From Parachlamydiales bacterium (GTDB taxonomy: Bacteria > Chlamydiota > Chlamydiia > Chlamydiales > SM23-39), in the NCBI GenBank assembly GCA_050302075.1, contig JBNLAH010000001.1, positions 228,157-292,156 on the forward strand: a DNA stretch of 64,000 nucleotides, in the 5' to 3' direction. The translations under genes and the position numbers were made by a program. Below the pieces are notes generated by a model. It ran no database searches. It was not told the origin of the DNA and worked only from the letters and a program-made list of their open reading frames with translations. Positions 5,857 through 28,072 of the stretch are shown one piece after another; the first letter of the stretch is position 1, and every line of letters starts with the position of its first letter.

Positions 5857-6055
5857 ATATCTCTTGTTATTTTTTATTGATGATCCTGTGGCTAGCTCAA
5901 TAATATAGCAGCCAAAATTTGAAGTAAATTTTCGCAAAAATTCTCATTTATTTTAAGAACTACCGTTATCTATAGAATGCAATAAACATGATGTAGCAAT
6001 GATAGATTGCGACTAAAACTTTATAAAAGATAATCAAAATAAAGACTGAACCAAG

Positions 6056-6523: not shown

Positions 6524-6806
6524 ATTTGCTTTTTTTTGAGGAATTATTCCAACTAGTATTTAAAAAAACAAGTCCTTGAATATTTTGAAGTGAAAAAGGA
6601 ATAGCTTTTAGAGACAGAGAAATAGAAAACCGGTTTTGCTAGTTGATTCTGATAAAAAGCTTTTTATTCATTAATTTACTCACTTATACCTGGAAATTTG
6701 AAGAAAAGAATCTATGAAAATATCAGATAGGAAAAATTCATGTTTAAATTTCGGCGGTTGGTATTTCCAGAATACTTTACAATCCAAGTTCGATGAGGAA
6801 TAAAAG

Positions 6807-8418: not shown

Positions 8419-8604
8419 GAGCTATTGCAGAGTAAGATAAAATAACCTTAACCTACACTAAACCAACATCTTAATTTCAATCTTCTTTGTTTTTTTATTC
8501 GTTTAATTTTGGAAAAATTACAATTAATTAATTTAATGTTCGGTTTTTTTATTGATTGTTTTTATTTTTATGTTTAATAATTTCTATTTTTTATAGGAGT
8601 TATT

Positions 8605-9177: not shown

Positions 9178-9549
9178 TTCGATCGTGTTGGTATCTAGCT
9201 GATATATCCTTATATAAAGCACCGCATTAAGCAAAACTTTTTATTAGGGAGAGTTTTTACGCAATTTTTTCTCCCTACAATAAGTTGCTGTTGAAGCTGA
9301 TTATTTACAGTTAGATCCATGATTCCATATGTCCAAGCATTTTAATTTTAGAAATAGGATCTAAAAGGCTGGTGAACAAAAACCATTGAAAACTTAGCAA
9401 AAGATATTAAATTATTTTTCTTTAAAAAATAGAAAAATTTTTATTACAGTTTTAGTGAATTTTTTTTAAGTTTAAATCTTAAATTCAGATAATTTACTTC
9501 TGATATCTTTTATTTTCATTTATAATATCTTAGATATTTTGGATTAAAA

Positions 9550-10224
9550 ATGAATTGTGTTGTCAATTTTATTTTAGGAACCATCTGTTCACAAGTAGCA
9601 GATAGAGGATTAGCAAATTCATTGGGTGTAGAAACCCTCAAACATGGGACAAGTTTTTTTTCCTATGCGAATATCCGCAGGCTTGGAGGCGTGCCAAAAT
9701 ATGAAAGTTTTTCATCAAAGTTATTAGCAAATTCTCTCAAAAAGAACTCAAGTTATTTTTATGTGTTTAAGGAAAATATATCTTTTTATAAAGGCTTAGT
9801 GTTGCCACGTATGCACATAATTAACAGCTCTGTTAGGACCATCCAAAAGCAAATTCCTTTTGATTCTTTTCTTGGAAAATCTCTAATTGCCTTAGGTGCA
9901 GCAATAAATGTTATAGCGACCCCCACTATCAATTTTCGATATCGAAAAGAAGAAATAACAGGACGCTTTGAAAGTGACCTTCAGTACCGTTTTGGGAAGT
10001 CAAAAGAGTCTTCAATAGCCTACAAGACTAAGGAAAAAGTAGAGAATTGGCGTATTGGTTCAATTCTAGTTGGAGTAAATGCTTCATGGTTAAATCGAGT
10101 GAAGGAAAATCCCAGACAACTATTAAAGGGTGTAATTCAGCTCATTGGAGCAGTTCTTCTTACTTGGTATGCAGGTAATTCAGTAAGAACTATTTCATTT
10201 GTCGCAGGGGCTATTCTTGCTTGA
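9550..10224 (+). CDS. hypothetical protein with C-terminal hydrophobic segment
   Basis: 224-aa ORF; no motif recognised. Confidence 0.55.
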   Translation: MNCVVNFILGTICSQVADRGLANSLGVETLKHGTSFFSYANIRRLGGVPKYESFSSKLLANSLKKNSSYFYVFKENISFYKGLVLPRMHIINSSVRTIQKQIPFDSFLGKSLIALGAAINVIATPTINFRYRKEEITGRFESDLQYRFGKSKESSIAYKTKEKVENWRIGSILVGVNASWLNRVKENPRQLLKGVIQLIGAVLLTWYAGNSVRTISFVAGAILA

Positions 10225-10273
10225 TCTCCAATATCATCTACCCAAAATGATATTAGGTTGCGATTAAGATTTA

Positions 10274-10309
10274 AAGGCAGAGAGAGATACATTTAGGACT
10301 ACTTTTCTC
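10274..10309 (+). repeat. possible highly degenerate copy of the junction element
   Basis: intergenic GAGAGATACATTTAGGACT (10282-10300) matches GAGAGACGCATTCAGAACT at 15/19. Confidence 0.35.
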
Positions 10310-10412
10310 ACAGTTTTATTTCCATTTATCTTTCTCAAAAAAACAACTGATTTGAATTTTAATTAAGTAATACATAGCATATTCAGCATTCTTAATTATA
10401 ATAATAAGTTAC

Positions 10413-13338: not shown

Positions 13339-13821
13339 TTAAGAATTAACTTGGGGTTTAGGAGAGTGAAAATAGGAAATAAGTTGCTTTGCATTTAAAG
13401 CAAAAAGAGCAATGAAAAGAATGCTTAATGGACTTGATAAATGCATTGAGAGGCCACATCCAAAAATCATTATAACACAGCTCATAATCTTTGCAGCTAT
13501 CATCCAAACTTTATCTAAAGCACTAAAAAGTTTCTCAAGCTTTGGAAGATTTCCAATATTTGCAATTTTTTGTATTCCATACGTCAGAAGAGGCATTGTA
13601 AGTCCAACACTTCCTAATGAAATAATACTTAAATCACTAAGATACAACTCAGATGCTGCAGCCATTAGAAAGATTGAGGAAGCAGGTTGCTGTAAGATTT
13701 TTCCAGCTACCCGTGTAATAGAAGATTCTGAGGATGTCTCCATAAGATTTCCAGCTGCTGAAGACACTCCTACTGAAGCTTCTAAATACATAATTAAATC
13801 ATGTAAATATATTGGACCCAT
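13339..13821 (-). CDS. hydrophobic membrane protein, paralog copy 1 of 3
   Basis: MGPIYL...KILQQPA...QKIANI.NLPKLEK.FS.LDKV shared with 18838-19332 and 21909-22409. Confidence 0.8.
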   Translation of the reverse strand: MGPIYLHDLIMYLEASVGVSSAAGNLMETSSESSITRVAGKILQQPASSIFLMAAASELYLSDLSIISLGSVGLTMPLLTYGIQKIANIGNLPKLEKLFSALDKVWMIAAKIMSCVIMIFGCGLSMHLSSPLSILFIALFALNAKQLISYFHSPKPQVNS

Positions 13822-14135: not shown

Positions 14136-14171
14136 TGGAGATAAAGAGAAGTGTTCAGAATTTTTAACTGG
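14136..14171 (+). repeat. junction element J1 (degenerate)
   Basis: TGGAGATAAAGAGAAGTGTTCAGAATTTTTAACTGG; 27/36 identical to J7. Confidence 0.75.
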
Positions 14172-14296
14172 AAGGAATTTTCAAACAAAATTGGGCAATA
14201 GGCTGTTTAGCCAACAGTTTGTTGTCTAATTAATAGTGATCTAATTTCATAGCCTCCTCAATGACGTGTTTGGAGCTATTAATTGTCTGCTAGGTT

Positions 14297-15586
14297 TTAG
14301 TTTTTACTGTTTAAAGTCTTAAAGCTAGCTCTGTAGCTTGCAACTATGAGTAGTACCATCAAAATAAAAACAAGTATCTTAAGATAGAGAGCTATAGCAG
14401 CAATTGATCCAAAGGTAACTAAGAGTCCTTGCGTGGTCAGTGATGGAACTGCCATCATAATAGGAAGTGCGATCATCTCAGTAACGATTTTGGTTTTGAA
14501 TCGGTTTTGATAGGGTAGATAGAGATATAATATTTGAGTTAAAGGGAAGAACAGAAAGCTAGCAGTAGTCACAAGAAGTCCATTAAAGACTCCTAGCCCT
14601 GGCCAAGATAAAGAGGAACTTAGAAAGATAATCCCTCCTACCAGGATAGATAGGGAGGCATAGAGAGCGGTGGTTTTCCATCCTTTCTTTAAAATGAGCC
14701 AGGTACCTAATATTACCCAAATAATAGAAATTGCAATTGTTGCAGAGACTACAAATCTTAAGTAACTGCCCATAAAAAGTTGGTAATCAGCTGGTTTCAG
14801 AGACTGAGTCTTAATCTGGAACTTAATGAGAATATCTAAAAAGTTTTTGATCATAGTAGAACCAGCTAATAAATAAGCAGCGCTTAAGATAGGAAAGTGA
14901 GTTTGTGATGAAGAAGACTCTTGGGGATGGATCAAACTATCCGGCAATCTTTTCCATGACCAGTTGAAGGTGAAGAAAGAAAAGACTACGAGGGCTATAG
15001 CTGGAATAACCATAGCCATTAGGGACCATTTGGAGGCGCCAATTGCCATTAAGCCTAAATTTGATACAATGGCTCCAGCAACACCCAAGACAAATGCAAG
15101 TGGAATATAATATTTTATTCCTTCAGGTAGGGAAGAAATACGATTAATAAACCCCCAGACAAATAGTGAATAAAGACTAAAGTTGAAAACACTTAGCATT
15201 ATGTACATCAGAGATATAACCCAGTGAGTTATCAAAGGTTTATATATTCCAAACGCTTCTGGTACCCCATTCAGTACCAAATGTTCTTGAAAAAACATTA
15301 GCCCAGTAAGAAGAACTATTACTCCTGTTAAAGCGATTAAAGTGCCCCTAAATACTTTTTCGAAGGGTTTGTAAATTGAAAAAATAAGAAGAGAGAGTGC
15401 CAGGATTATTTGGGGTAAGAATGTAGATACTTTAAGAGCTGGAATTTGAGCAAATCCTAGTTGTTTTCCTATGAGGGCATTTTGAGATAAATGAAAAAGA
15501 GTACTGCTACAAGAGAGGAGCACCAACAGCCATAAAGCTGGAAGAAAGATGAATTTTATGGCTTTTCGTAAGTTGGCATTTGTCAT
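14297..15586 (-). CDS. divergent Npt1/Npt2 (TLC/NTT) family nucleotide transporter-like protein
   Basis: multi-pass membrane protein; SLFVWGFINRI...EG.KYY, KKGWKTTA and YL.LP...RFKTK resemble NTT signature segments. Confidence 0.65.
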   Translation of the reverse strand: MTNANLRKAIKFIFLPALWLLVLLSCSSTLFHLSQNALIGKQLGFAQIPALKVSTFLPQIILALSLLIFSIYKPFEKVFRGTLIALTGVIVLLTGLMFFQEHLVLNGVPEAFGIYKPLITHWVISLMYIMLSVFNFSLYSLFVWGFINRISSLPEGIKYYIPLAFVLGVAGAIVSNLGLMAIGASKWSLMAMVIPAIALVVFSFFTFNWSWKRLPDSLIHPQESSSSQTHFPILSAAYLLAGSTMIKNFLDILIKFQIKTQSLKPADYQLFMGSYLRFVVSATIAISIIWVILGTWLILKKGWKTTALYASLSILVGGIIFLSSSLSWPGLGVFNGLLVTTASFLFFPLTQILYLYLPYQNRFKTKIVTEMIALPIMMAVPSLTTQGLLVTFGSIAAIALYLKILVFILMVLLIVASYRASFKTLNSKN

Positions 15587-15863
15587 GATAAATCCTGTTT
15601 TTTTAATTTTTTAAGCCGCTTGTACTTATAAGCTCATTTTTTCTATCTGATTTTCAACATGCAATCGGGTGCTCTATTCTACATTTTTTAGAACGATTGT
15701 TGCAAAAGGAAAGGAAGTTGGATGCTTCCTTTGCGGTTTCCTTTTTTTAGAGAAAATCTTTCTTAAGGATTTGACTTCATATTAAAATCTGATGGATTTG
15801 CATCTTTATCAGGGTTTTCAATTAAGAGCTTAAAGACTGAGATTGGATACAAAAAGTGTCCAA

Positions 15864-15899
15864 CCAGGTAGGAAGGATGCATTCAGAACTTTTGATTGG
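15864..15899 (+). repeat. junction element J2
   Basis: right 24 bp GATGCATTCAGAACTTTTGATTGG is 23/24 identical to J7; left half degenerate; left flank 15837-15863 is 25/27 identical to 17887-17913. Confidence 0.85.
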
Positions 15900-15966
15900 A
15901 AAAAAGTTGAATCAACTGATATGGTGCCCTTGCTAAAAATAAGGTTTTTGCACAAGAGCTAGTATT

Positions 15967-16806
15967 TTGAAAAAACTCTCTCTACTCCTTTTTCTATTGG
16001 TTATTTCTAAGGGACTTGCTGAAGAGAAATTAACAAGTCATTCATTGCCTACAGTTGTCATCACTTGCGCCTCAGGTGAACTAGGAGGAGCAATAGGAAA
16101 AAAATTGGCAAGTGCAAATAATTTGATTTTGACTGGTCGAAATCTAAAGAAACTTCAAATTCTTCAAAAAGAATTACAATCTAAATTCCCACACAATTAC
16201 GAAATAATTTTGCTAGACTATTGTGATTCATCTTCCATTCATGAATTTGAGAAAACTTTAAAAGTTAAAAAATCTGAAATTTCAGGCCTAGTTTTAATAA
16301 CGCCACGCCCCCAGTTTTGCAGTAGCCTACTAGAGTCTGAAGCAAATTGGATGAGTTTATTTCGACTTACTTTTACAGGTCCTATAGAGGTTCTCAAAAA
16401 AGTATTATCTCACACAGCCTCTCTACGTAAAATAGTTGTAATAGCGGGAACAACATCTGTTCAGCTGATCCCTGAGTATGGACCTACTTGTGTCATAAGA
16501 AGAATGTGGACGACTTATGTGAAAGCACTATCGCACCAGTTGGGTTCTAAAGGAATTTGTATAAACGCCTTATCACCAGGAGTTGTATTAACAGACTTCC
16601 ATGTTGAAAGAATAGCAATTAAAGCAAGACAAAATTATATTGATTACAATGATCAGATGAAGCAAGAGGTCGCGCAAATTCCTCTAGGACGTCATGCACT
16701 ACCTAGAGAAGTAGCGCAAACTGTAAAATTCCTTTTATCAAATGACTCAGACTTTATCAACGGAATCAATTTAGTGGTTGATGGGGGATCTACATTAAGC
16801 TATTAA
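15967..16806 (+). CDS. SDR family oxidoreductase (atypical), N-terminal signal-like segment
   Basis: VITCASGELG, NALSPG and INGINLVVDGG motifs; canonical YxxxK not evident. Confidence 0.8.
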   Translation: MKKLSLLLFLLVISKGLAEEKLTSHSLPTVVITCASGELGGAIGKKLASANNLILTGRNLKKLQILQKELQSKFPHNYEIILLDYCDSSSIHEFEKTLKVKKSEISGLVLITPRPQFCSSLLESEANWMSLFRLTFTGPIEVLKKVLSHTASLRKIVVIAGTTSVQLIPEYGPTCVIRRMWTTYVKALSHQLGSKGICINALSPGVVLTDFHVERIAIKARQNYIDYNDQMKQEVAQIPLGRHALPREVAQTVKFLLSNDSDFINGINLVVDGGSTLSY

Positions 16807-16971
16807 TGCTTATTTACCGTCTTTTTAAGTTTGGGAATAAAGAGAAATGAATTTTTCTAGATATGAGGTTTTTTCATTTAACGCTCTTTCCTAATTAAGG
16901 CATCAGAAGCTAGATCAACAACTATTTATGAGCCAGATAATAATTAACAAACCGACTGTCAAAGGGTACTT

Positions 16972-17502
16972 ATGAAACAGTTAAAGGAAACTATGCCTTC
17001 GCAGCTTGTTAAGTCTCTCGAAGAGATATACCAGCCGGCTGGCTTGAATATTCGTGATTTTGAAAGAGAAACCGAGAGTCAAGATTATGGAGCCTGTCGA
17101 TTCAGGCTAAATAGTCAAAAGATTGTGTTTCGTGTTGCAAAGACTACTCCAAAAAAAGTTGGACAATTTGTTGTTATATGGAAAAGAGCTGCAAGTGGTG
17201 TTATTGAGCCCTATGAAGTAAAAGACGATGTAAATTTTTTTGTAATTGCAGTACAAGCAAATGGCCATGTAGGTCAGTTTGTATTTCCTAAAAATGTTTT
17301 GCATGCAAAAGGAATTCTTTCAGGGAAAGGCTCTGAGGGCAAAAGAGCAATTAGGGTCTTTCCTGTATGGGATATTACTACAAGTCGACAAGCTAAGAAT
17401 ACTCAAGCATGGCAGCTTGATTATTTTTTCGAAATCACTAAAAATCAAGAAGAGAACATTTCAAATATTCAAAAAAGGTATAAGTATGACAATAAGTCCT
17501 AA
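16972..17502 (+). CDS. MepB family protein
   Basis: FRVAKTTPKKVGQFV.IWKR, GQFVFP, GKRAIRV.P.W and TQAWQL motifs. Confidence 0.85.
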   Translation: MKQLKETMPSQLVKSLEEIYQPAGLNIRDFERETESQDYGACRFRLNSQKIVFRVAKTTPKKVGQFVVIWKRAASGVIEPYEVKDDVNFFVIAVQANGHVGQFVFPKNVLHAKGILSGKGSEGKRAIRVFPVWDITTSRQAKNTQAWQLDYFFEITKNQEENISNIQKRYKYDNKS

Positions 17503-17857
17503 GCCCAACCTCCAGCTTGTTTATGTATCTGATATAAAGCATTCAACAGATTTTTATAAAATGATTTTTAAGGCTGAACCAGTGTTTACAAGTCCTCGTT
17601 ATGTGGCATTTTCGGCTGGAGAAGGCGCATTGTTTGCTATTTGGGCAGGAGGAACAGTTCCTGATGTATCTTCTCCCAGATATTCTGAGGTGGGAATTAT
17701 GCTACCTTCTAATGAAGCTGTAGACCAGCTCTATGAGGAATGGAAGCAGAATTCTGATATTAACATCGTTCAGGAACCCCAGACTGAAGTTTTTGGTCGT
17801 ACTTTTCTTGTAAAAGACCCTGATGGTCATATTATTCGCGTTTGCCTAAAAGATTAA
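17486..17857 (+). CDS. VOC/glyoxalase-bleomycin resistance family protein
   Basis: LVYVSDI..S.DFY and FGRTFLVKDPDGHIIRV; ATG 17486 overlaps the end of the MepB gene. Confidence 0.85.
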   Translation: MTISPKPNLQLVYVSDIKHSTDFYKMIFKAEPVFTSPRYVAFSAGEGALFAIWAGGTVPDVSSPRYSEVGIMLPSNEAVDQLYEEWKQNSDINIVQEPQTEVFGRTFLVKDPDGHIIRVCLKD

Positions 17858-17918
17858 TGAAATAAGATGTTCAAACCCGTAATCCGCTGAGATTGGATGA
17901 AAAAAGTGTCCAATTAAT

Positions 17919-17954
17919 TGGAGGTGGAGAGACTCGTTCAGAACTTTTAATTTG
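17919..17954 (+). repeat. junction element J3
   Basis: TGGAGGTGGAGAGACTCGTTCAGAACTTTTAATTTG; 32/36 identical to J7; first 14 bp identical to the tmRNA 3' end. Confidence 0.92.
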
Positions 17955-18209
17955 ATGAAAGCTCATCAAAGTTCTCTCTTTTTAAACTCCTTTTATCATA
18001 TCCCCAGATCAGAGTCTTACGTGTTTCTAGTTTAGACAATTTTGTGCTTTCAAACCGACTTTCAGAAACGCTTTAAACTTCATGATCTATTTTTCTGGGA
18101 TGTCTCCAAAATTTCTCTTTTAAAAATAGTTTATTGGTAAATTTTAAGTTGTTTTTTTTGTTAATATTGATAAAGTTTTGCCCCACTTTAGAAACCTAAG
18201 GAGTATAAT

Positions 18210-18755
18210 ATGTGTGTTAGTTTTAGAAAACTTGGTACTGCGATTCTTGGAGCAAGTGCAGCTGGTTATGCTGCTGGAAGATTTAGCAATCAAAGACAAG
18301 TGCAAGCACAAATAGATGCTAGGGTAGAAAGTGCATATCTGCAGGCGCAACGAGAGGCAAAAGCTAAGATGCGCGAGCAAATGTACAATCGACTAGGAAT
18401 TGTGAGATTTGGTAATGCGCGAGCAAATTATGCTCCTGCTTTTGTTGTAGCAACAGTACCTCCATTTTCTGATATGCCAGTAGCTAAATTTGAAGGAGGG
18501 GGCATCCTTCCTGGTAGTGGTATAATGATGGACAAGGTGCGTATGACTGGCCAAAATGTATCTGAATGTCTAGCTGAATGTGTGGATGCTATAGAAGAGG
18601 ATCAAGCTCTTATTGTTATACACGATGGGCAGGCAGTGTTCGTTATAGGTTGTGGAGGACGTCCTGAATCGGATTGGAGTGCAGTACGCAAAGCTTTAGG
18701 AATTAATGAAAGTGTTTCAGGGGGGAAGATAACAGATGTTGACAATAGCATCTAA
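18210..18755 (+). CDS. hypothetical protein with N-terminal hydrophobic segment and short coiled coil
   Basis: 181-aa ORF preceded by an AAGGAG ribosome-binding site. Confidence 0.65.
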   Translation: MCVSFRKLGTAILGASAAGYAAGRFSNQRQVQAQIDARVESAYLQAQREAKAKMREQMYNRLGIVRFGNARANYAPAFVVATVPPFSDMPVAKFEGGGILPGSGIMMDKVRMTGQNVSECLAECVDAIEEDQALIVIHDGQAVFVIGCGGRPESDWSAVRKALGINESVSGGKITDVDNSI

Positions 18756-18837
18756 TGTGAGTTGATTCAGAAAATACTATCAAATCATTCTCTCTAGCCT
18801 TCTTATAATTGCATGTCAAGCTGTTCTTTTAATATAT

Positions 18838-19332
18838 TTAAGAATTGACTTGGGCTTTAGAATTTTGAAAATAGGGCATAAGTTGCTTTGTATATAAAAC
18901 AGCATTTAATGCAAAAAGACCTATGAAAAGAAGGATTAGTGGACTTGATAAAGATGCTGAGAGGTTATACCCAATAATCATTGCACCACAGCTCATAACC
19001 TTTGCAGCTATCGACAAAACTTTATCTAAAGTACTAAAAAATTTCTCAAGCTTTGGAAGATTTGCAATGTTTGCAATTTTTTGCATTCCATGCGTTATAA
19101 GAGGCGCTATTAGCCCAATGCATCCTGATAAAATAGTGATTTCGTTTCTATAGTAAAAACCAGATACTATGCTCATTGTAAAGAGTGAGAAAGCAGGTTG
19201 CTGTAAAATTTTTCCAGCTATCTTACTAGTAGAAGATTCTGGTCTTGTTTCAATAAAGTTTCCAGCTGTTGAAGACAATCCTGTTGCAGCCATCAAGTAC
19301 ATAAATGGCCTATCTAAATATCCTGGTCCCAT
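18838..19332 (-). CDS. hydrophobic membrane protein, paralog copy 2 of 3
   Basis: homologous to 13339-13821 and 21909-22409, including the flanks. Confidence 0.8.
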   Translation of the reverse strand: MGPGYLDRPFMYLMAATGLSSTAGNFIETRPESSTSKIAGKILQQPAFSLFTMSIVSGFYYRNEITILSGCIGLIAPLITHGMQKIANIANLPKLEKFFSTLDKVLSIAAKVMSCGAMIIGYNLSASLSSPLILLFIGLFALNAVLYTKQLMPYFQNSKAQVNS

Positions 19333-19843
19333 AATTTTACCTATTATTAATAGGTCTCTATTTTATATTAATTAAAATAAATAAACAAGAAACTAGATTA
19401 TTTTATAATTACTTTGGGTATATATTGTAATTTAATTTCTAGTTTTTTATTTAAAATGTTATATTATTAATTGCCGTAAATAACTGCAAGTTTGTTTCTT
19501 ATATTTTTTCCCCATTTATACTAATTTGTAGATATCTGAGAAATATTTCAAAGTAATAAAAATTTTTTTTTAATGTTTGTCTTCAATTGCGCTCAGTTAT
19601 TTTAATCTATTCAAATATATTTCTAAAAAACTGGGATTAGGAAATTACTTGTAAGTCTTATGATATAATTCATAAGATCATTGTAAAATTCAATTAAGTT
19701 AAGTCAAAATAAAGCGAAACAAAAAGCAAACTGAATGAAGCTTTTGCCTTAAAAGTAAACATTGCTCGTAAAAGATAAGCTTTCTTTCACAATCGAAAAA
19801 AAACTTAACAAGTCCCTCAACATAAATGTTTTCATTTGCAAAA

Positions 19844-19879
19844 TGGAGGTGGAGAGACGAGTTCAGAACTTTTGACTAT
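19844..19879 (+). repeat. junction element J4
   Basis: TGGAGGTGGAGAGACGAGTTCAGAACTTTTGACTAT; 31/36 identical to J7. Confidence 0.92.
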
Positions 19880-20055
19880 GCTTTGAAAAGAAATCTTTTT
19901 CATTTACGTGGGAGAGGATGTTAAGTAGATCATTTTTATACAAGACAAAAAGGGAACATAAATAAAACTGCATTCAGCTTTTATCTTCAAAATAAATAAA
20001 TATATCTGCCATAATTTTCCGATTTAAAAAACATATCTTTAAATGGATTTAGATT

Positions 20056-21693
20056 ATGAAGTGTTATATAAAAAGTTTTTGTAAATTGTTTAGTGTTTTT
20101 CTAGCTGTAATCGGGTGTTTGTCTTCCCAACCATTATTCTCTGAAGCTTTAAAAACTGAAATGTTTTCTGTCGAAAAACCAGTTTTGCCAAAAATTTCCA
20201 ATCTTCAACTCCCAACACTAAACTCTGAAGTCTGTTCAAATCAAGACGGAAAAATACTACAGAGTTATAAAAAGAAGTTTGAAAAAAAATATGGCCGTAA
20301 TTTTTTAAAAAAACAGTGCAATTACAATTTTCTTTCTCTGGTTTGTAAAAAAGATTTGCAATGTGCTACTAGCATGCAAAAAAAAGCAGTTCAATTCCTA
20401 AAAATGATCTTTGAAGAACTCTCTAAAGCCAATTATAGCAAAGAAGACTTTCGTCATTATATGAACTGGTCTTTGAATATTTCTAGTTCATTATTTTTTG
20501 AAAAATATCTTTTTGCAGAGGAAGAGTTAAATGATTTATTTTACAAGCTCAATGATATTTCTGTCAGATCTCTCACTCCTAGATCAGCAGAAGAAAAAGG
20601 AAGGCATGAGGCATTTGCCTTAAAAAGCAAAAATGGGAAAGTTGCAGCTTTGATAAAAGTTGTAAAAGGTCCTAGGAATGCTTGGGCTAAAGTAGCACCT
20701 ATCATGGAGCAAAACGGTTCTGCAGGTCTTTATGAAAAGGTGGGTTATGATATTGATGTAATCTTAGGTTTGAAAATGACCCCGGCCACGTTGCTTGGGA
20801 AAATGCAATTAGAAAATGGTGAGACTGAAGATGTGGTCATCCAAAACTTTATTTCTAACTCCATTGATTTAGGTAATCTTTTGTATCGAGAAGATGGTGC
20901 TGAACTTATTATGAGCATTCCTACAGCTCCAGCTCAGATGATGGCCTTAAGTGGTATGATTAAAGGTCGTTTAGGTGGACACTTGGGTAATTATCTGTTT
21001 CATTTAAAAGATGGAGTAATAGATACAGTTTATGATATTGATTTAGAAGAACTTTTACCTCCTTGCAATCGACTTGAAAAAGGAATGACTCTATACCCTT
21101 TAAAAGAAGATAGAAATCAAGCCGATCGAATCAATGTATCTGATCTTAGCTCAGATTTACAGGAAATGGCTTATAAATCTGCTCCCTTATGTAGAATGTG
21201 TATTTTAGGATTACCACAGAATGGAAAGCCTTTTGAAAGGGCATGTTTGAAAATTATTGTGCATGATTTGCTTCCCTGTTTGCTAGATGAGTATCATGAA
21301 TATTTAAATGATGAAAAAGAAATTAGAAGAGAGTGCTTGCAAGCTCAAAAGGAACGTCTTTTAAAAATTCAGGAAATTTGCAAACAGCAATTAGAACTTC
21401 CTGAAATTTCGCTAACTCCAAGAGACCTTTATTTTTATCTTTTTGGAGGAAAACATCTTTATAAATTAGCCCGTGAAAGAGGATATCCTCCAATTATTAT
21501 TTTCAATCAAGTCATTGGAGATCCTCTTCAACATAGTATGATTGATTTTTCACGTCCTGAAAAAATGCCTTTTTGTAAATTTTTGAATGAGAGAGATACT
21601 TCAGAGCAGAAAAAAGCTCATAGTGATTTTATATTTGATAATCTGCTTATCTTAGAAAATCAAGAATCTCTAGCAGGTCAAGGCAATCAATAA
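20056..21693 (+). CDS. exported protein with PI3/PI4-kinase/HipA-like fold (possibly catalytically atypical)
   Basis: signal peptide; VAALIK, EKVGYDID..LGL..TP.T, IQNFI, GHLGNYL and IDLE resemble PI4K-type motifs. Confidence 0.5.
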   Translation: MKCYIKSFCKLFSVFLAVIGCLSSQPLFSEALKTEMFSVEKPVLPKISNLQLPTLNSEVCSNQDGKILQSYKKKFEKKYGRNFLKKQCNYNFLSLVCKKDLQCATSMQKKAVQFLKMIFEELSKANYSKEDFRHYMNWSLNISSSLFFEKYLFAEEELNDLFYKLNDISVRSLTPRSAEEKGRHEAFALKSKNGKVAALIKVVKGPRNAWAKVAPIMEQNGSAGLYEKVGYDIDVILGLKMTPATLLGKMQLENGETEDVVIQNFISNSIDLGNLLYREDGAELIMSIPTAPAQMMALSGMIKGRLGGHLGNYLFHLKDGVIDTVYDIDLEELLPPCNRLEKGMTLYPLKEDRNQADRINVSDLSSDLQEMAYKSAPLCRMCILGLPQNGKPFERACLKIIVHDLLPCLLDEYHEYLNDEKEIRRECLQAQKERLLKIQEICKQQLELPEISLTPRDLYFYLFGGKHLYKLARERGYPPIIIFNQVIGDPLQHSMIDFSRPEKMPFCKFLNERDTSEQKKAHSDFIFDNLLILENQESLAGQGNQ

Positions 21694-21711
21694 AAAGTCG
21701 AAATTTAGAAA

Positions 21712-21742
21712 AAAATGAGGCAACAAACTGTTGCCTCATTTT
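21712..21742. terminator. bidirectional intrinsic terminator-like hairpin
   Basis: AAAATGAGGCAACA / TGTTGCCTCATTTT perfect 14-bp inverted repeat just after the stop at 21693. Confidence 0.8.
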
Positions 21743-21795
21743 CAACAGCTTACTGGCAAATATTAATAATAGTGATCTGAGTTCATAGGATTTAA

Positions 21796-21831
21796 GGGGA
21801 GTGTAGGGATAAATTCAGAACTTTTGATTGG
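21796..21831 (+). repeat. junction element J5 (left half degenerate)
   Basis: GGGGAGTGTAGGGATAAATTCAGAACTTTTGATTGG; 28/36 identical to J7, last 18 bp identical. Confidence 0.8.
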
Positions 21832-21908
21832 CATGGGGTTATAGTAATGTCTTCTCATCCCCCCTATAACATGCTTATAATAACACTTAAGCTATTCTTT
21901 TAATATAT

Positions 21909-22409
21909 TTAAGGATTAACGAGGTCTTTAGAAGGTTGAAAATAGTGCATAAGTTGCTTTGTATATAAAACAGCATTTAATGCAAAAAGACTTAAGAAAA
22001 GAAGGATTAGTGGACTTGATAAAGATATTGAGAGCTTATATCCAAAAATCATTGCACCACAGCTCATAACTTTTGCAGCTATCGACAAAACTTTATCTAA
22101 AGTACTAAAAAATTTCTCAAGCGTTGGAAGATTTGCAATATTTGCAATTTTTTGCATTCCAAGCGTTAGAAGAGGCATTGCAAGTCCAACACTACCTAAT
22201 AAAATATAGCTCCTGAGTCCAAGATCTAGATCTAGATCTGATACTTCATTCATTAGAAGGATTGAGACAGCAGGTTGCTGTAAGATTTTTCCAACTACCT
22301 TACCGATAGAAGATTCTGAGTCTGTTTCAATGAAGTTTCCAACTGTTGAAGACAATCCTGCTGTAGCCATCAAGTACATAATTGGCTTATCTAGATATAT
22401 TGGTCCCAT
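21909..22409 (-). CDS. hydrophobic membrane protein, paralog copy 3 of 3
   Basis: homologous to 13339-13821 and 18838-19332. Confidence 0.8.
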   Translation of the reverse strand: MGPIYLDKPIMYLMATAGLSSTVGNFIETDSESSIGKVVGKILQQPAVSILLMNEVSDLDLDLGLRSYILLGSVGLAMPLLTLGMQKIANIANLPTLEKFFSTLDKVLSIAAKVMSCGAMIFGYKLSISLSSPLILLFLSLFALNAVLYTKQLMHYFQPSKDLVNP

Positions 22410-22623
22410 AATTTTACCATTAGTTAATTAACTATGTGTTAATTATATATTAATTAAAATAAATAGACAAGAATCTGATTTTTTAATAATAATTACTTGA
22501 TATTTATATAATAATATAGTTGCGTTTTTAATTTAAAATGATGTTTTTTATAAAATAAATTACGGCAAGTAGCTATAAGTTTAAATAACTTGAATCAGTT
22601 CTTTATAGCCCTTTGCTACAAAT

Positions 22624-22659
22624 TAACAGTGGAGAGACGCTTTCAGAACTTTTGATTGG
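22624..22659 (+). repeat. junction element J6
   Basis: TAACAGTGGAGAGACGCTTTCAGAACTTTTGATTGG; 31/36 identical to J7. Confidence 0.9.
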
Positions 22660-22717
22660 GATAATTTCGCTAAAAAGGCTATAACTTTTTCTAAAATTTA
22701 TATCAGTAGAAGAGCCT

Positions 22718-22774
22718 ATGGATAGAGGAGAAGTAATACTTTACACAACAGCAGATGGTCAGACCTCCATCTAA
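22718..22774 (+). pseudogene. N-terminal remnant of a RhuM/Fic-associated family gene
   Basis: ATG...TAA reads MDRGEVILYTTADGQTSI*, resembling the GE(I/V)ILYxTxDG start of RhuM-family proteins. Confidence 0.55.
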
Positions 22775-22786
22775 TATATTTCTGAG

Positions 22787-23029
22787 ATGCCATTCATTAT
22801 TTTAAGAGCAAAAAACTCAAATAAGATAGGTATGTTGCGGACATCTGCTATAGAGCTCGGAATCAAGTTTGTGGATTTTACTGATACAATTACAATTGGT
22901 ACTTATCAAGAGCAGCTAGAGCGAACAAAAGTCACTCAGAAAGCTGATCTAATTTACTATGGAATCGTATTATTTGGTGATTGGGAAAAAGTACCAGAAT
23001 TGACTAAAAAGTTTTCTCTCTGGAAGTAA
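22787..23029 (+). pseudogene. DUF2000-like protein, N-terminally truncated
   Basis: PFIILRA.NS..I, DFT.T, YYGI.LFG and LTKKFSLWK C-terminal pattern; only 80 aa. Confidence 0.55.
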
Positions 23030-23041
23030 GGCCTGAATATC

Positions 23042-23929
23042 ATGAATATTTCAATAGATGCTTCTCTAGTCAGTCGTTTGATTGCCTCTCAATTTCCTAA
23101 CTGGAAACATCTTCCTATTGAACCTGTAGCGATGAGTGGGTGGGATAATCGAACCTTCCATTTAGGTAAAAAAATGTTGGTTCGCCTTCCAAGCAAAGCA
23201 GATTATGAACTGCAAGTGGAAAAGGAGCATGAGTGGTTACCAAAACTCGCTCTAGCGCTTCCAGTTTCAATTCCTATTCCTTTGGCAATGGGCAGGCCAG
23301 AGTATGGGTATCCTTGGAAATGGTCGATTTATCAATGGCTTGAAGGTGAGACTGTAGCTACTGATTTGCCGAGTGATTTAGTTGCATTTGCCCTTGATCT
23401 TGCCAGTTTTCTGAAAGCTTTACATAAAATCGATACTGAGGGAGGGCCCTCGCCAGGATTACACAGTTTTTATCGAGGTGGACCGTTATCAATTTACGAT
23501 TCGGATACACGTAAAGCAATTCTTTCCTTAAAAAGGAAAATTGATGCAAAGACAGCAACGGATATTTGGGAAAAAGCTTTATCAACTTCTTGGAAGGATC
23601 ATCCTGTGTGGGTTCACGGAGACATCAGCGCCGGCAACCTTTTAGTTAAAGCTAATAAACTTTGTGCTGTGATTGATTTTGGGCAACTAGCAGTAGGTGA
23701 TCCAGCATGTGATCTTGCTATCAACTGGACGTTATTTTATGGGAAAAGTAGGAATGCCTTTCAAAAGGCATTTTCTTTTGATGAAGATACTTGGGTACGG
23801 GCTCAGGGGTGGGTTTTATGGAAAGCGTTAATTGTAGCAGTTGGTGGTACCAATCCAAGTAATTTCGAGTCGAAGCAGTGTTGGCGTATTCTTGAAGAAG
23901 TAATAGAAGATCACCGTAAGTCTAATTGA
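23042..23929 (+). CDS. aminoglycoside phosphotransferase (APH/choline kinase) family protein
   Basis: GWDNRTF, VRLP, HGDISAGNLL, VIDFG and GDPACDLA motifs. Confidence 0.9.
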   Translation: MNISIDASLVSRLIASQFPNWKHLPIEPVAMSGWDNRTFHLGKKMLVRLPSKADYELQVEKEHEWLPKLALALPVSIPIPLAMGRPEYGYPWKWSIYQWLEGETVATDLPSDLVAFALDLASFLKALHKIDTEGGPSPGLHSFYRGGPLSIYDSDTRKAILSLKRKIDAKTATDIWEKALSTSWKDHPVWVHGDISAGNLLVKANKLCAVIDFGQLAVGDPACDLAINWTLFYGKSRNAFQKAFSFDEDTWVRAQGWVLWKALIVAVGGTNPSNFESKQCWRILEEVIEDHRKSN

Positions 23930-24094
23930 TACTCTCTCAATTTAATTTAATAATCCTGACTTGATCCATTTTTTCAGATTGATACTTGATTTTGCAAAAG
24001 CATCTGCAGGACTTTTATTAAAGGGGGCAGGCCAAGGACGAAGGTTAGGGTAGCGTTACAGCTGGGATTTTTAGTTACATGTCACTAAAAACAA

Positions 24095-24122
24095 AAGGCT
24101 TTAGCCGTAAAACTAAAGCCTT
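24095..24122 (-). terminator. terminator-like hairpin immediately left of J7
   Basis: AAGGCTTTAG / CTAAAGCCTT 10-bp inverted repeat with an A-run on its left (U-tract on the minus strand). Confidence 0.7.
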
Positions 24123-24131
24123 AAAATTAGT

Positions 24132-24167
24132 TGGAGGTGGAGAGACGCATTCAGAACTTTTGATTGG
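24132..24167 (+). repeat. junction element J7 (reference copy)
   Basis: TGGAGGTGGAGAGACGCATTCAGAACTTTTGATTGG; first 14 bp identical to 27670-27683. Confidence 0.93.
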
Positions 24168-24293
24168 TCTAAAATGGATCAAAATTTTAATGTAATTAAC
24201 TGTTATTTAGTCAGTTAAGCTTTTGTTGTTGACGTTGAGAATTGGATAGAATATACTGCAGTTGTTGATTAATTGATGTAAATACTATCCAAT

Positions 24294-24920
24294 ATGAAAA
24301 GAAAATCAAAAGCTATTCGAGATAAAGCTATTGAAATATTTAAGCTTCATGGAGGTATTCTCAGATCTTCAAAGGCTATTAAGGAAGGAATACATCCTCG
24401 TATTCTTTATGAATTACGTAATCAGGGTATTATTGAAGAGCTTCAAAGGGGATTATATGCTTTAACCGATTTACCTGACATTGAAGATCCTGATTTAGTT
24501 GCAATTTCAAAAATGATACCTGATGGAGTTATTTGTTTAATATCGGCTCTTTATTTTCATCGTTTGACAGTACAAATTCCAAGATGGATAGATATTGCAG
24601 TTAAGAGAAAATATGTTCCTCCTAAAGTCAAACATCCTCCAATCCAAATTCATTGGTTTTCAGATAAATTTTATAAATCAGGCATAGAAAAATATAATTT
24701 TGGGGGAGCTGAAATAAAAATATATTCTCGAGAAAAATCGATTATTGATTGCTTCAGATTGAGAAAAAAAATAGGGATTGATGTTGCTGTAGAAGCTTTG
24801 AAGAATTATTTAAAACAGGATAATCTTAATATTCATCTTTTGTTGGATTTTGCAAAGGAATCGAGAGTAATTAAATTATTAGAACCATATCTACAGGCTT
24901 TAATTTATGATCAATCATAA
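24294..24920 (+). CDS. abiEi: type IV toxin-antitoxin AbiEi-family antitoxin
   Basis: N-terminal wHTH-like segment ending RGLY; ICLISAL.FH.LT and YS.EK.I.D.FR motifs; overlaps the toxin gene. Confidence 0.85.
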   Translation: MKRKSKAIRDKAIEIFKLHGGILRSSKAIKEGIHPRILYELRNQGIIEELQRGLYALTDLPDIEDPDLVAISKMIPDGVICLISALYFHRLTVQIPRWIDIAVKRKYVPPKVKHPPIQIHWFSDKFYKSGIEKYNFGGAEIKIYSREKSIIDCFRLRKKIGIDVAVEALKNYLKQDNLNIHLLLDFAKESRVIKLLEPYLQALIYDQS

Positions 24921-25791
24921 CATAAAAAACATTTCAGTTTCAGTAAAAGCCCGTCTATTAAACCTTGCTCGCAATTCAAAAAGACCTTTTCAGGAATTAT
25001 TGCAATATTATGGAATGGAGCGTTTTCTTTTTAGACTATCAGAATCTAATCATAGAGATGTATTTATTTTAAAAGGAGCTCTTCTTTTAAAAGTTTGGAG
25101 AATTTCTGATTCTCGAGCAACGATGGATATTGATACTTTAGCAAGAACATCAAATTCTTTGGAAAATCTTAATAAAATAACAAAAGAGATATGCGAGCAT
25201 GTTCCATCTATTGATGATGGTGTTGAATTTCTTTCGTCTTCCGTTAGAGTAGAAAAAATGCAATTGCAGAAAGAGTATGAAGGTATTCGAATTCGTTTTG
25301 AAGGCTGTCTTGGTTCTGCAAAAATTCCAATGCAAATTGATGTTGGGTTTGGGGATGTTATTACTCCTGCGGTTGAAGAATACCAATATCCAAATCTTCT
25401 AGATTTTCCAGGACCAAAACTTAAAATGTATCCTCAAGAAACACTTATTGCAGAGAAAATTTTAACAATGGTTGAAAAAGGAGAAACAAATAGTAGAATA
25501 AAGGATTTTTATGACGTTTGGCTTCTAATTCGACACAATACATTTTCTCATGAGATATTGAAATTAGCTTTGGATAGAACTTTTAAATCTCGTAATATGC
25601 AATATAATTTCAAAACAGTTCGATCTTCGATTGAAATATATTTAAAAAGCGTTCAGGCAAATTTATTATGGGAAAGATTTAAACTAAAGAAAATACCTCA
25701 GATATATCAGCATATTTCATTTGAAATTTTAACAAATGAAATAATCAATCTTTTAGAGAAGATAGAAGAAAATATTTTACTCAAATTATAA
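24907..25791 (+). CDS. abiEii: AbiEii/AbiGii nucleotidyltransferase toxin
   Basis: ERFL.RL, FILKGA, RATMDID, IAEK and SRIKDFYD motifs. Confidence 0.88.
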   Translation: MINHNIKNISVSVKARLLNLARNSKRPFQELLQYYGMERFLFRLSESNHRDVFILKGALLLKVWRISDSRATMDIDTLARTSNSLENLNKITKEICEHVPSIDDGVEFLSSSVRVEKMQLQKEYEGIRIRFEGCLGSAKIPMQIDVGFGDVITPAVEEYQYPNLLDFPGPKLKMYPQETLIAEKILTMVEKGETNSRIKDFYDVWLLIRHNTFSHEILKLALDRTFKSRNMQYNFKTVRSSIEIYLKSVQANLLWERFKLKKIPQIYQHISFEILTNEIINLLEKIEENILLKL

Positions 25792-25815
25792 TATTGAGAA
25801 TTAAAATAATAAGCC

Positions 25816-26463
25816 TTAAATAATCTGAAGTCTTAAATTAAAATCAGAAAGATCATAAAAAAATGAATTTTTATGAATATAGGGGTTCATTCTTTGCCTT
25901 TCATTTAGCTCTTTTTCCCAATTTTCCTTATTGTTTAAGGCGTCAGAAGCGGCATCAACAACTATTGCAGATCCAGATAAAATAAGTGCAGTGCTGGTTC
26001 CAGCGCTAAATGGAGCGGCCAAGACACCTACAAGAATTTGACCTATACCAAACCAATATTTCAATTTAACTCCACTAGGCTGTTCTAGTTTGCATAAGTG
26101 AGCCATATTCTTTAAGCTAATCGGTTTTACGGATACAGATCGAGTTTTATAATATATTTGTAAAGCAAAATTCATCATAGGATCTAAAAGCTCCTCATTT
26201 GATAGGCTATGAATAAACTTATCAATGAGCAAAGATCCTTTTTCAAGATCTCCCTTAGAAAGATAAACCGCAGCTCTCATGCCTGTTATTTTGCTTTTCT
26301 GTTCAGGTTCGAAAGTTTCCCATTCGTCCAATGTTTGCAAACTTTCTAAAAACCTCTCTTCTTGAAAGTAATGAATAAAAGACTCTGCATATCGACTACT
26401 TAAAGGAGATGCAAAAATAAATAAGGGAAACGGTAAAAATATAAACAATCTCAGAAAATGCAT
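25816..26463 (-). CDS. hypothetical exported protein with C-terminal hydrophobic hairpin
   Basis: signal-like MHFLRLFIFLPFP start at 26463; Gly/Ala-rich hydrophobic segment GIGQILVGVLAAPFSAG. Confidence 0.6.
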   Translation of the reverse strand: MHFLRLFIFLPFPLFIFASPLSSRYAESFIHYFQEERFLESLQTLDEWETFEPEQKSKITGMRAAVYLSKGDLEKGSLLIDKFIHSLSNEELLDPMMNFALQIYYKTRSVSVKPISLKNMAHLCKLEQPSGVKLKYWFGIGQILVGVLAAPFSAGTSTALILSGSAIVVDAASDALNNKENWEKELNERQRMNPYIHKNSFFYDLSDFNLRLQII

Positions 26464-26663
26464 GAAGTTCCTCCAAACATTTTTATAAAAAGACATCCTG
26501 CAAGTATTGATCCCCAAAGGAGCACTATTCCTTTACGCATTTTTTTTTTGTCATTCATTTGCCAAGCTGTTTTTAGCATTAATATGCTGGGAGGTAATGC
26601 AAAAAAAGAAAATAGTAAAAGTCCTAAACGGACTATAGAAAAAACAATGTATCCTAGTTCCAT
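26451..26663 (-). CDS. small two-TM hypothetical protein
   Basis: 70 aa with two hydrophobic segments; overlaps the start of the downstream gene. Confidence 0.5.
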   Translation of the reverse strand: MELGYIVFSIVRLGLLLFSFFALPPSILMLKTAWQMNDKKKMRKGIVLLWGSILAGCLFIKMFGGTSCIF

Positions 26664-26741
26664 AAAACCCCCATTTTGAGGAAGAAAAATATATATAAAT
26701 AAAAATTATATTGTCAAGTAGCTACGAATGACTTTTGGAAG

Positions 26742-27371
26742 TTAATATTTACTTTTTATGGAATGACTAAGATTCCCTATAAAATAGCATCTAGGACTAG
26801 AAATCAAATGTACACTTTTGGGATCTAATTTTGAGCCAACCGATATTTCTAATTTTACAGTATCAAGTAAATCACATTCTATCTCTATTTCATCATTCAA
26901 TTGCACCTGAGTCAATGAATCTTTTAATATAAGAAGATCGTAATCAAAAGAAACTGTTTTATTTGTTGTTATTAGTTTTACAATAGCAATTTTCTGGCTA
27001 GTAATGTTTTTTAATAGTATTTTCCATTTTATTTCGAATGTTCCTTCCAATTTAAGAGTTATGTAGGGATCTCTTAAAAACGGTACTGAAAAAAAAGTTC
27101 CATCTCCTGTTATATTTTTTGGGGATTCGAATTCAGTATAATTCCATTCCCTGGTCGAATGAAAATAATTTGATGTATTTGAATAGTGGTTATTGATTGT
27201 ATCAGCTTGCTGAATAGAGTTATTGTTGCTGTTATTCATAGAAATAGGATTACCATGTTTAGTCTTAGACTGCACTTTCTGAACAGGAGAATTCTCTTTT
27301 TTTGAGGAAAACGTGAATTTAAACTTATCAAAGATTTTAGGTGACATTTTTTCTATTGGATAATTTAACAA
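26742..27371 (-). CDS. hypothetical protein
   Basis: 209-aa ORF with Asn/Ser-rich N-terminal linker. Confidence 0.55.
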   Translation of the reverse strand: MLNYPIEKMSPKIFDKFKFTFSSKKENSPVQKVQSKTKHGNPISMNNSNNNSIQQADTINNHYSNTSNYFHSTREWNYTEFESPKNITGDGTFFSVPFLRDPYITLKLEGTFEIKWKILLKNITSQKIAIVKLITTNKTVSFDYDLLILKDSLTQVQLNDEIEIECDLLDTVKLEISVGSKLDPKSVHLISSPRCYFIGNLSHSIKSKY

Positions 27372-27375
27372 AAAA

Positions 27376-27395
27376 GCCTATCAGATTTGATAGGC
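27376..27395 (-). terminator. terminator-like hairpin left of J8
   Basis: GCCTATCA / TGATAGGC flanked by an A-run and a T-run. Confidence 0.7.
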
Positions 27396-27415
27396 CTTTT
27401 GACTATATTTGTCAA

Positions 27416-27439
27416 TGAAGGTGGAGAGAATCGAACTCT
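27416..27439 (+). repeat. junction J8: duplicate of the tmRNA 3' end (att-like)
   Basis: TGAAGGTGGAGAGAATCGAACTCT is 23/24 identical to 27670-27693. Confidence 0.9.
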
Positions 27440-27486
27440 ATGATTTTTTCTAAACTGGATCAAACTTCGATAAATAACATTAATAA

Positions 27487-27499
27487 TATCAATAAGTTA
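27487..27499 (+). promoter_or_regulatory. IHF-consensus-like site
   Basis: TATCAATAAGTTA fits WATCAANNNNTTR. Confidence 0.4.
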
Positions 27500-27552
27500 A
27501 GTGATGTTCAAATGTTCTATCTTATTTTGGTTTTAGCCGCTTTTTTGCAGTC

Positions 27553-27573
27553 TAGTGCGTAAGTAGTGCGTAA
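27553..27573 (+). repeat. 10-bp direct repeat, possible integrase arm-type sites
   Basis: TAGTGCGTAA at 27553-27562 and 27564-27573. Confidence 0.55.
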
Positions 27574-27634
27574 ATGAATTTAACAAAGCAGATTTTGAAA
27601 TTGTAAATTTAAGATATTTCTCTTTAAAAATAAA

Positions 27635-27661
27635 AGACTTCGCTTGGATTTTGCGAAGTCT
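27635..27661 (-). terminator. tmRNA terminator
   Basis: AGACTTCGC / GCGAAGTCT 9-bp inverted repeat 8 bp downstream of the tmRNA end, followed on the minus strand by a T-rich tract. Confidence 0.8.
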
Positions 27662-27669
27662 AGAATGAA

Positions 27670-28072
27670 TGGAGGTGGAGAGAATCGAACTCTCGTCCTT
27701 AGCAAACTCAATATTAATGACTACATGCTTATCTCCTTTGTTAATAATCTACTCTGATGAAAGGAGCAACACTACAAGTAGATTTAATCCTCGTTGTCTT
27801 GGGTATCTTTTCAGAGGATCAGAGAAAAGGACCCAAACCCAGAAATATGACGGTAGATTCTAAAACTCTGGATCTGATTTTAGGCTACCGGGCGCTTAAA
27901 ACTGTTAGGTCTTAAGCAGCAGCTGCAAAAGTTTCTACTCCAGCAGAGAAGTCAACTTTTACGATTTTGCTTTCTTTAGCAATTATAGTGTAATCGGCTT
28001 TTTAAGAGGCCAACCGATCAACCTCTGCATGCCACTAATACGAAATTTCCAAGTCGAAACCTGTTCACCCCC
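27670..28072 (-). ncRNA. ssrA: tmRNA; tag reading frame 27980-27912 encodes (A)KESKIVKVDFSAGVETFAAAA*
   Basis: 5' GGGGGTGAACAGGTTTCGAC; 3' GAGAGTTCGATTCTCTCCACCTCCA with T-loop; acceptor stem with G3-U70; Ala-ending tag; CCA not encoded. Confidence 0.96.

Follow-up and report, generated by a model that had tools for sequence, protein, structure and literature searches.

Junction repeats behind ssrA

The window, a 64,000-nucleotide stretch of contig JBNLAH010000001.1 from a Parachlamydiales bacterium, contains the transfer-messenger RNA (tmRNA) gene ssrA and, downstream of its 3' end, a tandem array of small gene modules. The modules are separated by seven copies of a 36-bp junction element (J1 to J7) and by an eighth junction (J8). 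We consider it very likely that the array is a pile-up of decayed, fused integrative elements at the ssrA 3' end. The junction element itself is, by its reading frame, the tail of a large serine recombinase (LSR) gene. In the following, L-numbers denote loci or contigs of relatives, P-numbers protein homologues, G000 the genome of the window and G303 another genome. The target gene and the seven junctions, whose 36-bp copies start at the first coordinate given, are as follows.

27670..28072, minus strand: tmRNA gene ssrA, the insertion target (ARAGORN)
14136..14201, plus strand: J1, core and LSR tail relic (EVFRIFNW...), the most decayed of the seven (profile, translation)
15864..15962, plus strand: J2, core 5 bp short, tail intact, DAFRTFDW... 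(profile, translation)
17919..18035, plus strand: J3, attP-like junction, tail WRWRDSFRTFNL... (profile, translation)
19844..19924, plus strand: J4, tail WRWRDEFRTFDY... (profile, translation)
21796..21903, plus strand: J5, core decayed, tail DKFRTFDW... (profile, translation)
22624..22725, plus strand: J6, tail WRDAFRTFDWDNFAKKAITFSK... (92-97% nucleotide identity to module left ends in L065/L066, L162 and L284)
24132..24218, plus strand: J7, core and tail intact, WRWRDAFRTFDWSK... (profile, translation)

With the copy at 24132 as reference, J1 to J7 matched at 27, 27, 32, 31, 28, 31 and 36 of 36 positions, respectively. The earlier note had described these seven copies in one orientation, and its positions and identities were reproduced, far above chance. 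The first 14 bp, the core, equal the antisense ssrA end at 14 of 14 positions in J3, J4 and J7, which agrees with what had been stated for the intact copies; J1, J2, J5 and J6 matched at 11, 6, 9 and 10 positions. In leave-one-out tests, the junctions scored 26-56 bits compared to a maximum of 10-16 bits in three genome shuffles. Moreover, a profile trained solely on the junctions of other genomes recovered all seven at 29-64 bits, and the best non-junction reached 15.8. The modules between the junctions, numbered 1 to 8 towards ssrA, measured 1728, 2055, 1925, 1952, 828, 1508, 3284 and 254 bp, the lengths given before.

The profile had ten hits in the whole assembly. A genome-wide scatter of the element was ruled out, since seven of the ten fall within the array. 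One of the others (C89:205) sits on a 506-bp contig; junction-bearing contigs of the source run had a depth of about 3 compared to 25, and this copy probably comes from a rarer organism or strain rather than from this genome. The last two (C2:54574 and C2:55214) are degenerate, lie 640 bp apart with similar tails, and adjoin a pnp-like gene far from ssrA. The genes around them have homologues about 17 kb behind ssrA in G303, and the pair may be a relocated piece of the array. The J2 and J5 cores were also considered as ends of other tRNAs, and this was rejected on zero exact matches among the 33 tRNAs detected.

The junction element and its recombinase

All seven copies translate on the plus strand in one frame as W-R-W-R-D-x-F-R-T-F-D-W, variants of WRWRDAFRTFDW. 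The tails stay open for 21-38 codons and diverge beyond the first 12. An exact 26-nt pattern, which favours intact cores and so biases the counts, occurred in at least 128 stretches of the species collection, whose titles were mostly Chlamydiota where named. Among 159 junctions from many hosts, stops at codons 13-24 numbered 21 in the tail frame compared to 98 and 81 in the other two frames, and the stops of the tail frame peaked at codons 24-36 (123).

One locus has a 440-codon frame, an LSR, that continues into antisense ssrA at these 14 bp; the open reading frame (ORF) of L027 carries PF07508, PF13408 and PF00239 domains. Of 301 genomes of the phylum, 124 had matches to this LSR family, frequently to 3' fragments, and the genome of the window had none. 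The C-terminal ends of integrated members lie in antisense tmRNA or tRNA. Thirty of 120 homologues ended in antisense tmRNA, 56 in tRNA-like sequence (scored loosely, a few being tmRNA variants), 32 in other sequence, and two (P0004 and P0025) were full-length and ran through the tail as WRW[RL]DAFRT. P0025 matched CcrB with an E value of 2e-27, far below the family cut-off. A phage LSR of 34% identity (L131) ends in WDVFRT, and a search of viral contigs for the free attP form gave 0 exact matches and one distant phage LSR alone. Because of the reading frame of the tail, the depletion of stops and the full-length homologues that run through it, the 36 bp is an attP inside the recombinase gene; the element is thus the far junction after integration, with attP in the 3' end of the LSR gene. 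The copies had been called intergenic, and are rather coding relics of the LSR gene tail. A recombinase linked to the motif elsewhere, as the earlier note had anticipated, was found in relatives, whose LSR gene ends in the junction element.

Remains of the LSR gene body were recognised immediately before two junctions.

15841..15868, plus strand: 28-bp relic of the LSR gene body before J2 (EIGYKKCPT), hairpin (arm profile 29.8, null maximum 11.8; fold)
17891..17918, plus strand: 28-bp relic of the LSR gene body before J3, hairpin (arm profile 22.5, null maximum 11.8; fold)

LSRs next to a core graded from complete down to 48-residue stubs: among 15, four were complete, three internally deleted and eight cut at the 5' side, some perhaps by the contig end.

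The insertion point was given by an empty/filled pair. L233 has an LSR element of 12,614 bp, and L269, a metagenome contig, represents its empty allele, with flanks 99.8-99.9% identical and the switch at the core; this places the LSR element precisely at the 14-bp core. At core positions 10-12, a TTG variant occurred in 11 of 66 junctions compared to 0 of 154 tmRNA-type ends. Since this variant is restricted to junctions, positions 10-12 would come from the element, and the crossover probably falls in core positions 1-9, close to or at the TG of positions 7-8. Furthermore, GAACTTTTG in the tail and GAACTCTCG in ssrA matched at 7 of 9 positions at a 5-bp offset, the best of 17 offsets. In serine integrases, the zinc-domain motif lies 5 bp nearer the centre in attB (11-19) than in attP (16-24) (PMC3783163). 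Taken together with this geometry, the offset would place the crossover centre at core positions 7-8.

The order of insertion was read from another pair. L248 and L273 share a 922-bp module and its left flank; the next feature is ssrA in one and a further 3.4-kb module in the other. This supports serial insertion, in which new inserts displace older modules away from ssrA, and sustains the proposal that the junctions are att hybrids from site-specific insertion at ssrA.

The survey of relatives covered 80 ssrA-downstream regions, picked with long contigs favoured from genomes with an ssrA match (68 of 81 and 137 of 141); under 2.5 kb was available for 13 of them. Tail (P-type) junctions were present in 33 of the 80 Chlamydiota regions, 1-4 in each and all on one strand, and the opposite strand scored at most 12.1 against a threshold of 16. 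The expected clustering of hits downstream of ssrA was observed both in the array and in the relatives. The tail-junction modules of these regions (n = 60) had a median length of 2.4 kb, and tblastn detected LSR sequence in five. By Pfam, the 237 module ORFs of relatives included three LSRs and not one tyrosine integrase; the cargo includes RhuM, Fic, AbiEii, YhcG, GNAT, TetR and phosphotransferases. L045 has seven junctions in 6.5 kb, so the array of the window is dense but not unique.

Traces of tyrosine-integrase elements, and a terminator arm of another family, were also found at the same site.

24067..24131, plus strand: right arm of a tyrosine-integrase element with the ssrA terminator hairpin, before J7 (homologous arms in many hosts; -17.6 kcal/mol)
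27372..27415, plus strand: terminator arm of another recurrent family, before J8 (arm comparison, fold)
27416..27669, plus strand: module 8, 254 bp, a tyrosine-integrase element reduced to two arms (arm comparison)

J8 (27416) repeats 23 of the first 24 bp of the ssrA end and has no LSR tail. The ssrA duplication reported there was thus confirmed; its grouping with the other junctions was not, since J8 is of the tyrosine-integrase type. Its tail matches the left ends of tyrosine-integrase elements, one of which (L287) is followed by an integrase fragment, with PF00589 intact in L252. Module 8 is laid out as a 24-bp ssrA copy on the left, a shared arm repeat at about 27548-27574 and a terminator on the right. 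Its left part was 70-77% identical to L194, L199, L273 and L287, and its right part 75% identical to L014 and L070, and module 8 is thus two arms fused at the shared repeat with loss of the integrase. It has the features of tyrosine-integrase tDNA islands: a tmRNA fragment to the T-loop, arm repeats on both sides and an integrase in the parent. The arms before J7 and before ssrA are members of one conserved family, about 140 bp long, in which a terminator is combined with paired arm repeats. In L252, 83% identical over ssrA and the next core genes, a J7-type arm adjoins an intact tyrosine integrase, and none of the cargo of the window lies within the 5.4 kb available.

Further structures were observed at the ssrA ends of relatives. 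In L016, L074 and L286, the terminator adjoining ssrA is built from an inverted copy of LSR tail sequence. A gene-less GC-rich element of about 175-215 bp, absent from G000, sits at the same 14-bp core in tandem copies adjoining ssrA (L009, L029, L033, L052, L080, L165, L166, L185, L188 and L236). It ends in an inverted ssrA-end copy and a terminator, often identical to the one before it, and presumably resembles repetitive extragenic palindromic (REP) sequences. In L258 (8735-10028) and L241, ssrA-end duplications of at least 28 bp flank 1.3-kb modules adjoining an LSR element.

Origin of the modules

The genes of the modules, with the gene immediately left of J1, are listed below.

13339..13821, minus strand: gene X copy 1, membrane protein, left of J1 (78-85% nucleotide identity to copies 2 and 3; 74-76% to the copy in the G303 ssrA region)
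14297..15586, minus strand: module 1, TLC nucleotide-transporter-like gene (PF03219)
15967..17857, plus strand: module 2, short-chain dehydrogenase, MepB-like and glyoxalase-like genes (Pfam)
18210..19332, both strands: module 3, 181-aa protein of unknown function (plus) and gene X copy 2 (18838-19332, minus) (ORF comparison)
20056..21693, plus strand: module 4, 545-aa protein, no Pfam or NCBIfam match (profile searches)
21909..22409, minus strand: module 5, gene X copy 3 (paralogue comparison)
22718..22775, plus strand: module 6, rhuM gene cut after 18 codons, breakpoint at about 22775/22776 (comparison with relatives)
22776..23029, plus strand: module 6, DUF2000 gene without its 5' part (Pfam positions 53-133 only; 82% nucleotide identity to a longer copy in L041)
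23042..23929, plus strand: module 6, phosphotransferase (APH-like) gene (PF01636)
24294..25791, plus strand: module 7, AbiEi/AbiEii type IV toxin-antitoxin pair (PF13338, PF08843)
25816..27371, minus strand: module 7 right, two genes of unknown function (Pfam; right end 79% identical to a 630-bp module in L063)

Homologues of the module 1 gene follow the same junction type directly in L005 and L049 (82-84% nucleotide identity). Since four other ssrA loci (L005, L049, L167 and L209) carry divergent TLC-like copies at 82-84%, this gene travels on these elements. Module 2 as a unit was not found in 300 genomes, where its genes occurred only separately (one genome was unscored). In L162 and L284, the cut rhuM gene of module 6 runs on as a RhuM-family ORF, in L066 as a homologous ORF, and module 6 is a deletion chimera of the cut rhuM and the cut DUF2000 gene; its APH-like gene scored far below the cut-offs of named resistance families. 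L284 and a contig of run X2 share the left end of module 7 at 97-98% identity. The three gene X paralogues, membrane genes of 160-166 aa, precede J1, J4 and J6, and one homologue lies in the G303 ssrA region; they had no Pfam or NCBIfam match above cut-off and Atlas scores of at most 0.80. The statement that the modules carry unrelated genes does not hold for these paralogues.

The array was proposed to lack its own recombinase. In the window, no tyrosine recombinase was found, the three PF00589 hits of the genome all lying outside it; PF00239 and PF07508 had 0 hits genome-wide, and a six-frame profile search of the 96%-complete genome gave no LSR (best E value 0.41). The proposal was therefore correct for tyrosine and serine recombinases; for transposases, which had been denied for all 64 kb, it held for the 28 ORFs at 257-27371, the range checked, which excludes the ORFs right of ssrA. 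Outside the window, a 9.6-kb island at tRNA-Met (C1:342532-352173) carries a 352-aa tyrosine integrase, the single non-Xer-like one of the genome, and a second integrase fragment. As a trans-acting enzyme for the array it was ruled out by its own 25-bp direct repeat.

We propose the following course of events. The chlamydial LSR family, of about 500 aa, carries attP inside the end of its own gene, as the sequence shows. The empty/filled pair shows that integration splits this gene, so that the body adjoins ssrA and reads into its antisense strand, and a tail of 25-35 codons stays at the far end as the 36-bp junction. The next element enters at the restored ssrA end and displaces the older ones, as one strain pair shows. 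Tyrosine-integrase elements share this target and contribute terminator arms, as at J8 and in the arms before J7 and ssrA. Integrase and replication genes are then lost by deletion, which joins one element's left end to the right end of an element that arrived later and leaves 1-4 cargo genes in place. Modules 6 and 8 show this, and the other modules are taken to follow. The surviving right ends are probably set by selection to keep a terminator beside ssrA.

To compare whole modules, 160 non-redundant ones were used, with one genome per species. Eighty pairs shared an end, 39 the left only, 40 the right only and one both; the last is a unit of 243 bp without genes, present on two contigs (L045 and L063) of the same assembly. 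Without de-duplication there were 59 whole-module matches, 54 of them identical with identical flanks, that is, the same genome fetched twice or near-identical strains. The other five comprised two instances of the 243-bp case, two with a shared flank of 81-87%, and one in which a new element separates an identical module from ssrA. The rhuM-type left end, 92-97% identical in four hosts, is joined to four different right ends. Moreover, other hosts carry the left ends at J6 and J7, at 92-98% identity, joined to other right ends, with the order reversed in L284. Within the array, modules 1, 2 and 8 alone plausibly keep ends of one type; the right arms of modules 6 and 7 are from other families, and cognate attL/attR ends were not recognised for modules 3-5.

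The earlier note had favoured small integrase-less circles, inserted and excised singly by a recombinase acting in trans, as an integron-like capture array. Modules 1 and 2, which have retained the tail on their left side and a 28-bp LSR arm on their right, would suit such circles, as would similar short-armed modules directly at ssrA in L047 and L241, neat one-gene modules of 0.5-1 kb in many relatives, the 243-bp unit in its two contexts, and the scarcity of LSR sequence in the modules. However, the genome carries no LSR, and its one non-Xer-like tyrosine integrase is confined to its island. Apart from the 243-bp case, none of the 59 matches placed a whole module beside an unrelated left neighbour, module 6 joins cut genes, and the J2 core is 5 bp short. 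Circles formed from modules whose terminator arms are without LSR arm sequence would bear a site of the attL type, and serine integrases normally do not join such a site to attB (PMC3783163). In the source run, assessed from contigs only, so that rare circles are lost, depth was even (24-25x) with no junction-to-junction or alternative joint; the joints in runs X2 and X4 rest on 21-39 letters and stem from other organisms. We therefore regard this explanation as quite unlikely. Decayed remnants of full-size elements, the alternative that the note itself had named, fit better, as homologous modules share one end and complete and partly deleted LSR elements occur in relatives.

Alternatively, much of the array could have grown by local duplication or by homologous recombination between strains at the shared 36 bp. 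The gene X paralogues and their upstream spacers are closer to each other than to the G303 copy, and among 158 modules, 11 have a right end that duplicates the sequence flanking their own junction on the left, in one case (L013) without a mismatch over 140 bp. However, the homology of the spacers tapers off ahead of the junctions, widespread arm families account for most of these 11 repeats, and the seven tails differ, two of them matching modules of other hosts at 92-98%. As an account of much of the array, this seems very improbable.

Several observations nevertheless weigh against a pile-up of decayed, fused elements. The three gene X paralogues suggest some local duplication. The stub lengths of LSR genes cluster at 28-37 bp, a pattern also compatible with selection to keep a functional att arm. 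Among the 160 modules, right ends fall most often (63) into a hairpin class, in many cases a short GC-rich terminator. No autonomous parent of this class was identified, and modules with such ends often are single genes of about 1 kb (median 985 bp). This terminator type was seen in just 7 of 35 junction-free ssrA flanks, and therefore is not clearly the native type. Furthermore, no autonomous parent was found for modules 1-5, and with one genome per species, intact shared cassettes could be missed. It is possible that modules 1 and 2 could be excised by a visiting LSR and that circles of these were moved in trans. We consider it unlikely that a subset with a 28-37-bp LSR arm (e.g. modules 1 and 2), with the one-gene GC-rich-terminator modules, represents integrase-free mini-cassettes; if so, visiting LSR elements would excise them and put them back at ssrA in different chlamydial families, and a serine integrase whose left half-site is relaxed would form the basis of a gene-capture system.

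Left of J1 (257-13250), accessory-looking genes were observed (GNAT, Ada, tag, OmdA and a 945-aa TPR protein). The 945-aa gene is 84% identical in the G303 ssrA region and Ada 74% in L032. The profile found no junction above 8 bits at 257-13250, which may be an older part of the pile whose junctions are lost. Elsewhere in the window, tandem paralogues lie at 58716-59953 (two copies about 660 bp apart, 82-92%) and 48203-52485 (three genes about 1.6 kb apart, about 70%).

Relation to known systems

The closest known system is the tandem ssrA genomic islands of Dehalococcoides with the serine integrase DsiB (McMurdie et al. 2011, PMC3146451); the chlamydial array works like a Dsi island, but is not one. 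DsiB is a CcrB-like LSR whose gene 3' end overlaps att and which may be whole only on the circle, and 15 of 31 islands are without an integration module and were proposed to be cis-mobilisable or fixed (PMC3146451). Both systems have direct repeats of the ssrA 3' end in tandem and in one orientation downstream of ssrA, and an LSR 3' end overlapping att, seen in chlamydial relatives and as relics only in the window. The resemblance to DsiB was drawn from its description; by eye, about 10 of 13 degenerate positions of the Dehalococcoides flanking motif were alike in the chlamydial tail on the ssrA strand. In contrast to Dehalococcoides, 14 bp rather than 20 are common with ssrA, modules measure 0.25-3.3 kb, tyrosine-integrase elements use the same site and the host is chlamydial. 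The six-gene Dehalococcoides module (dsiA, parB, mom) was not found by Pfam in the complete elements L231 and L233.

Accretion of cis-mobilizable elements (CIMEs) proceeds by integration, decay to an integrase-less element and a next insertion at the target-gene end (Guedon et al. 2017, PMC5704250). Array modules are like CIMEs in having no integrase or transfer genes; unlike a CIME, which retains its own attL and attR, most of them probably have ends from two elements. Prochlorococcus tycheposons use tRNA/tmRNA sites, where newer ones push older ones into an island and fragmented integrases remain, 910 of 937 using tyrosine integrases (bioRxiv 10.1101/2020.12.28.424599). Their marker is a partial tRNA, whereas here it is a recombinase coding tail. 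Integrons and attC clusters without an integron-integrase (CALINs) consist of small gene modules in an array that is extended at one end (Cury et al. 2016, PMC4889954), as does the present array. However, no IntI lies near it and PF00589 had no hit in the window, its junctions are conserved in sequence, and its modules are not intact units. An attC-like folding was rejected: 14 folds, made without an attC covariance model, gave no shared hairpin, with z-scores from +1.4 to -2.4 and hairpins in differing places.

According to a survey from 2014, no serine recombinase was known to have a tRNA or tmRNA gene as its target (PMC4383910); the Dehalococcoides case was already published when it appeared. 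In the literature covered, which excludes most subscription journals, no description of such ssrA LSR arrays in chlamydiae was found. The chlamydial array is new, and its kind, LSR islands at ssrA, is already known. Environmental chlamydiae are usually considered poor in mobile DNA. In these organisms, the ssrA end serves widely as a site of entry for foreign genes, and the empty/filled pair locates the att site of an uncharacterised integrase family. The tail relic is a countable mark of past insertions, and the order of gene gain can thus be followed.

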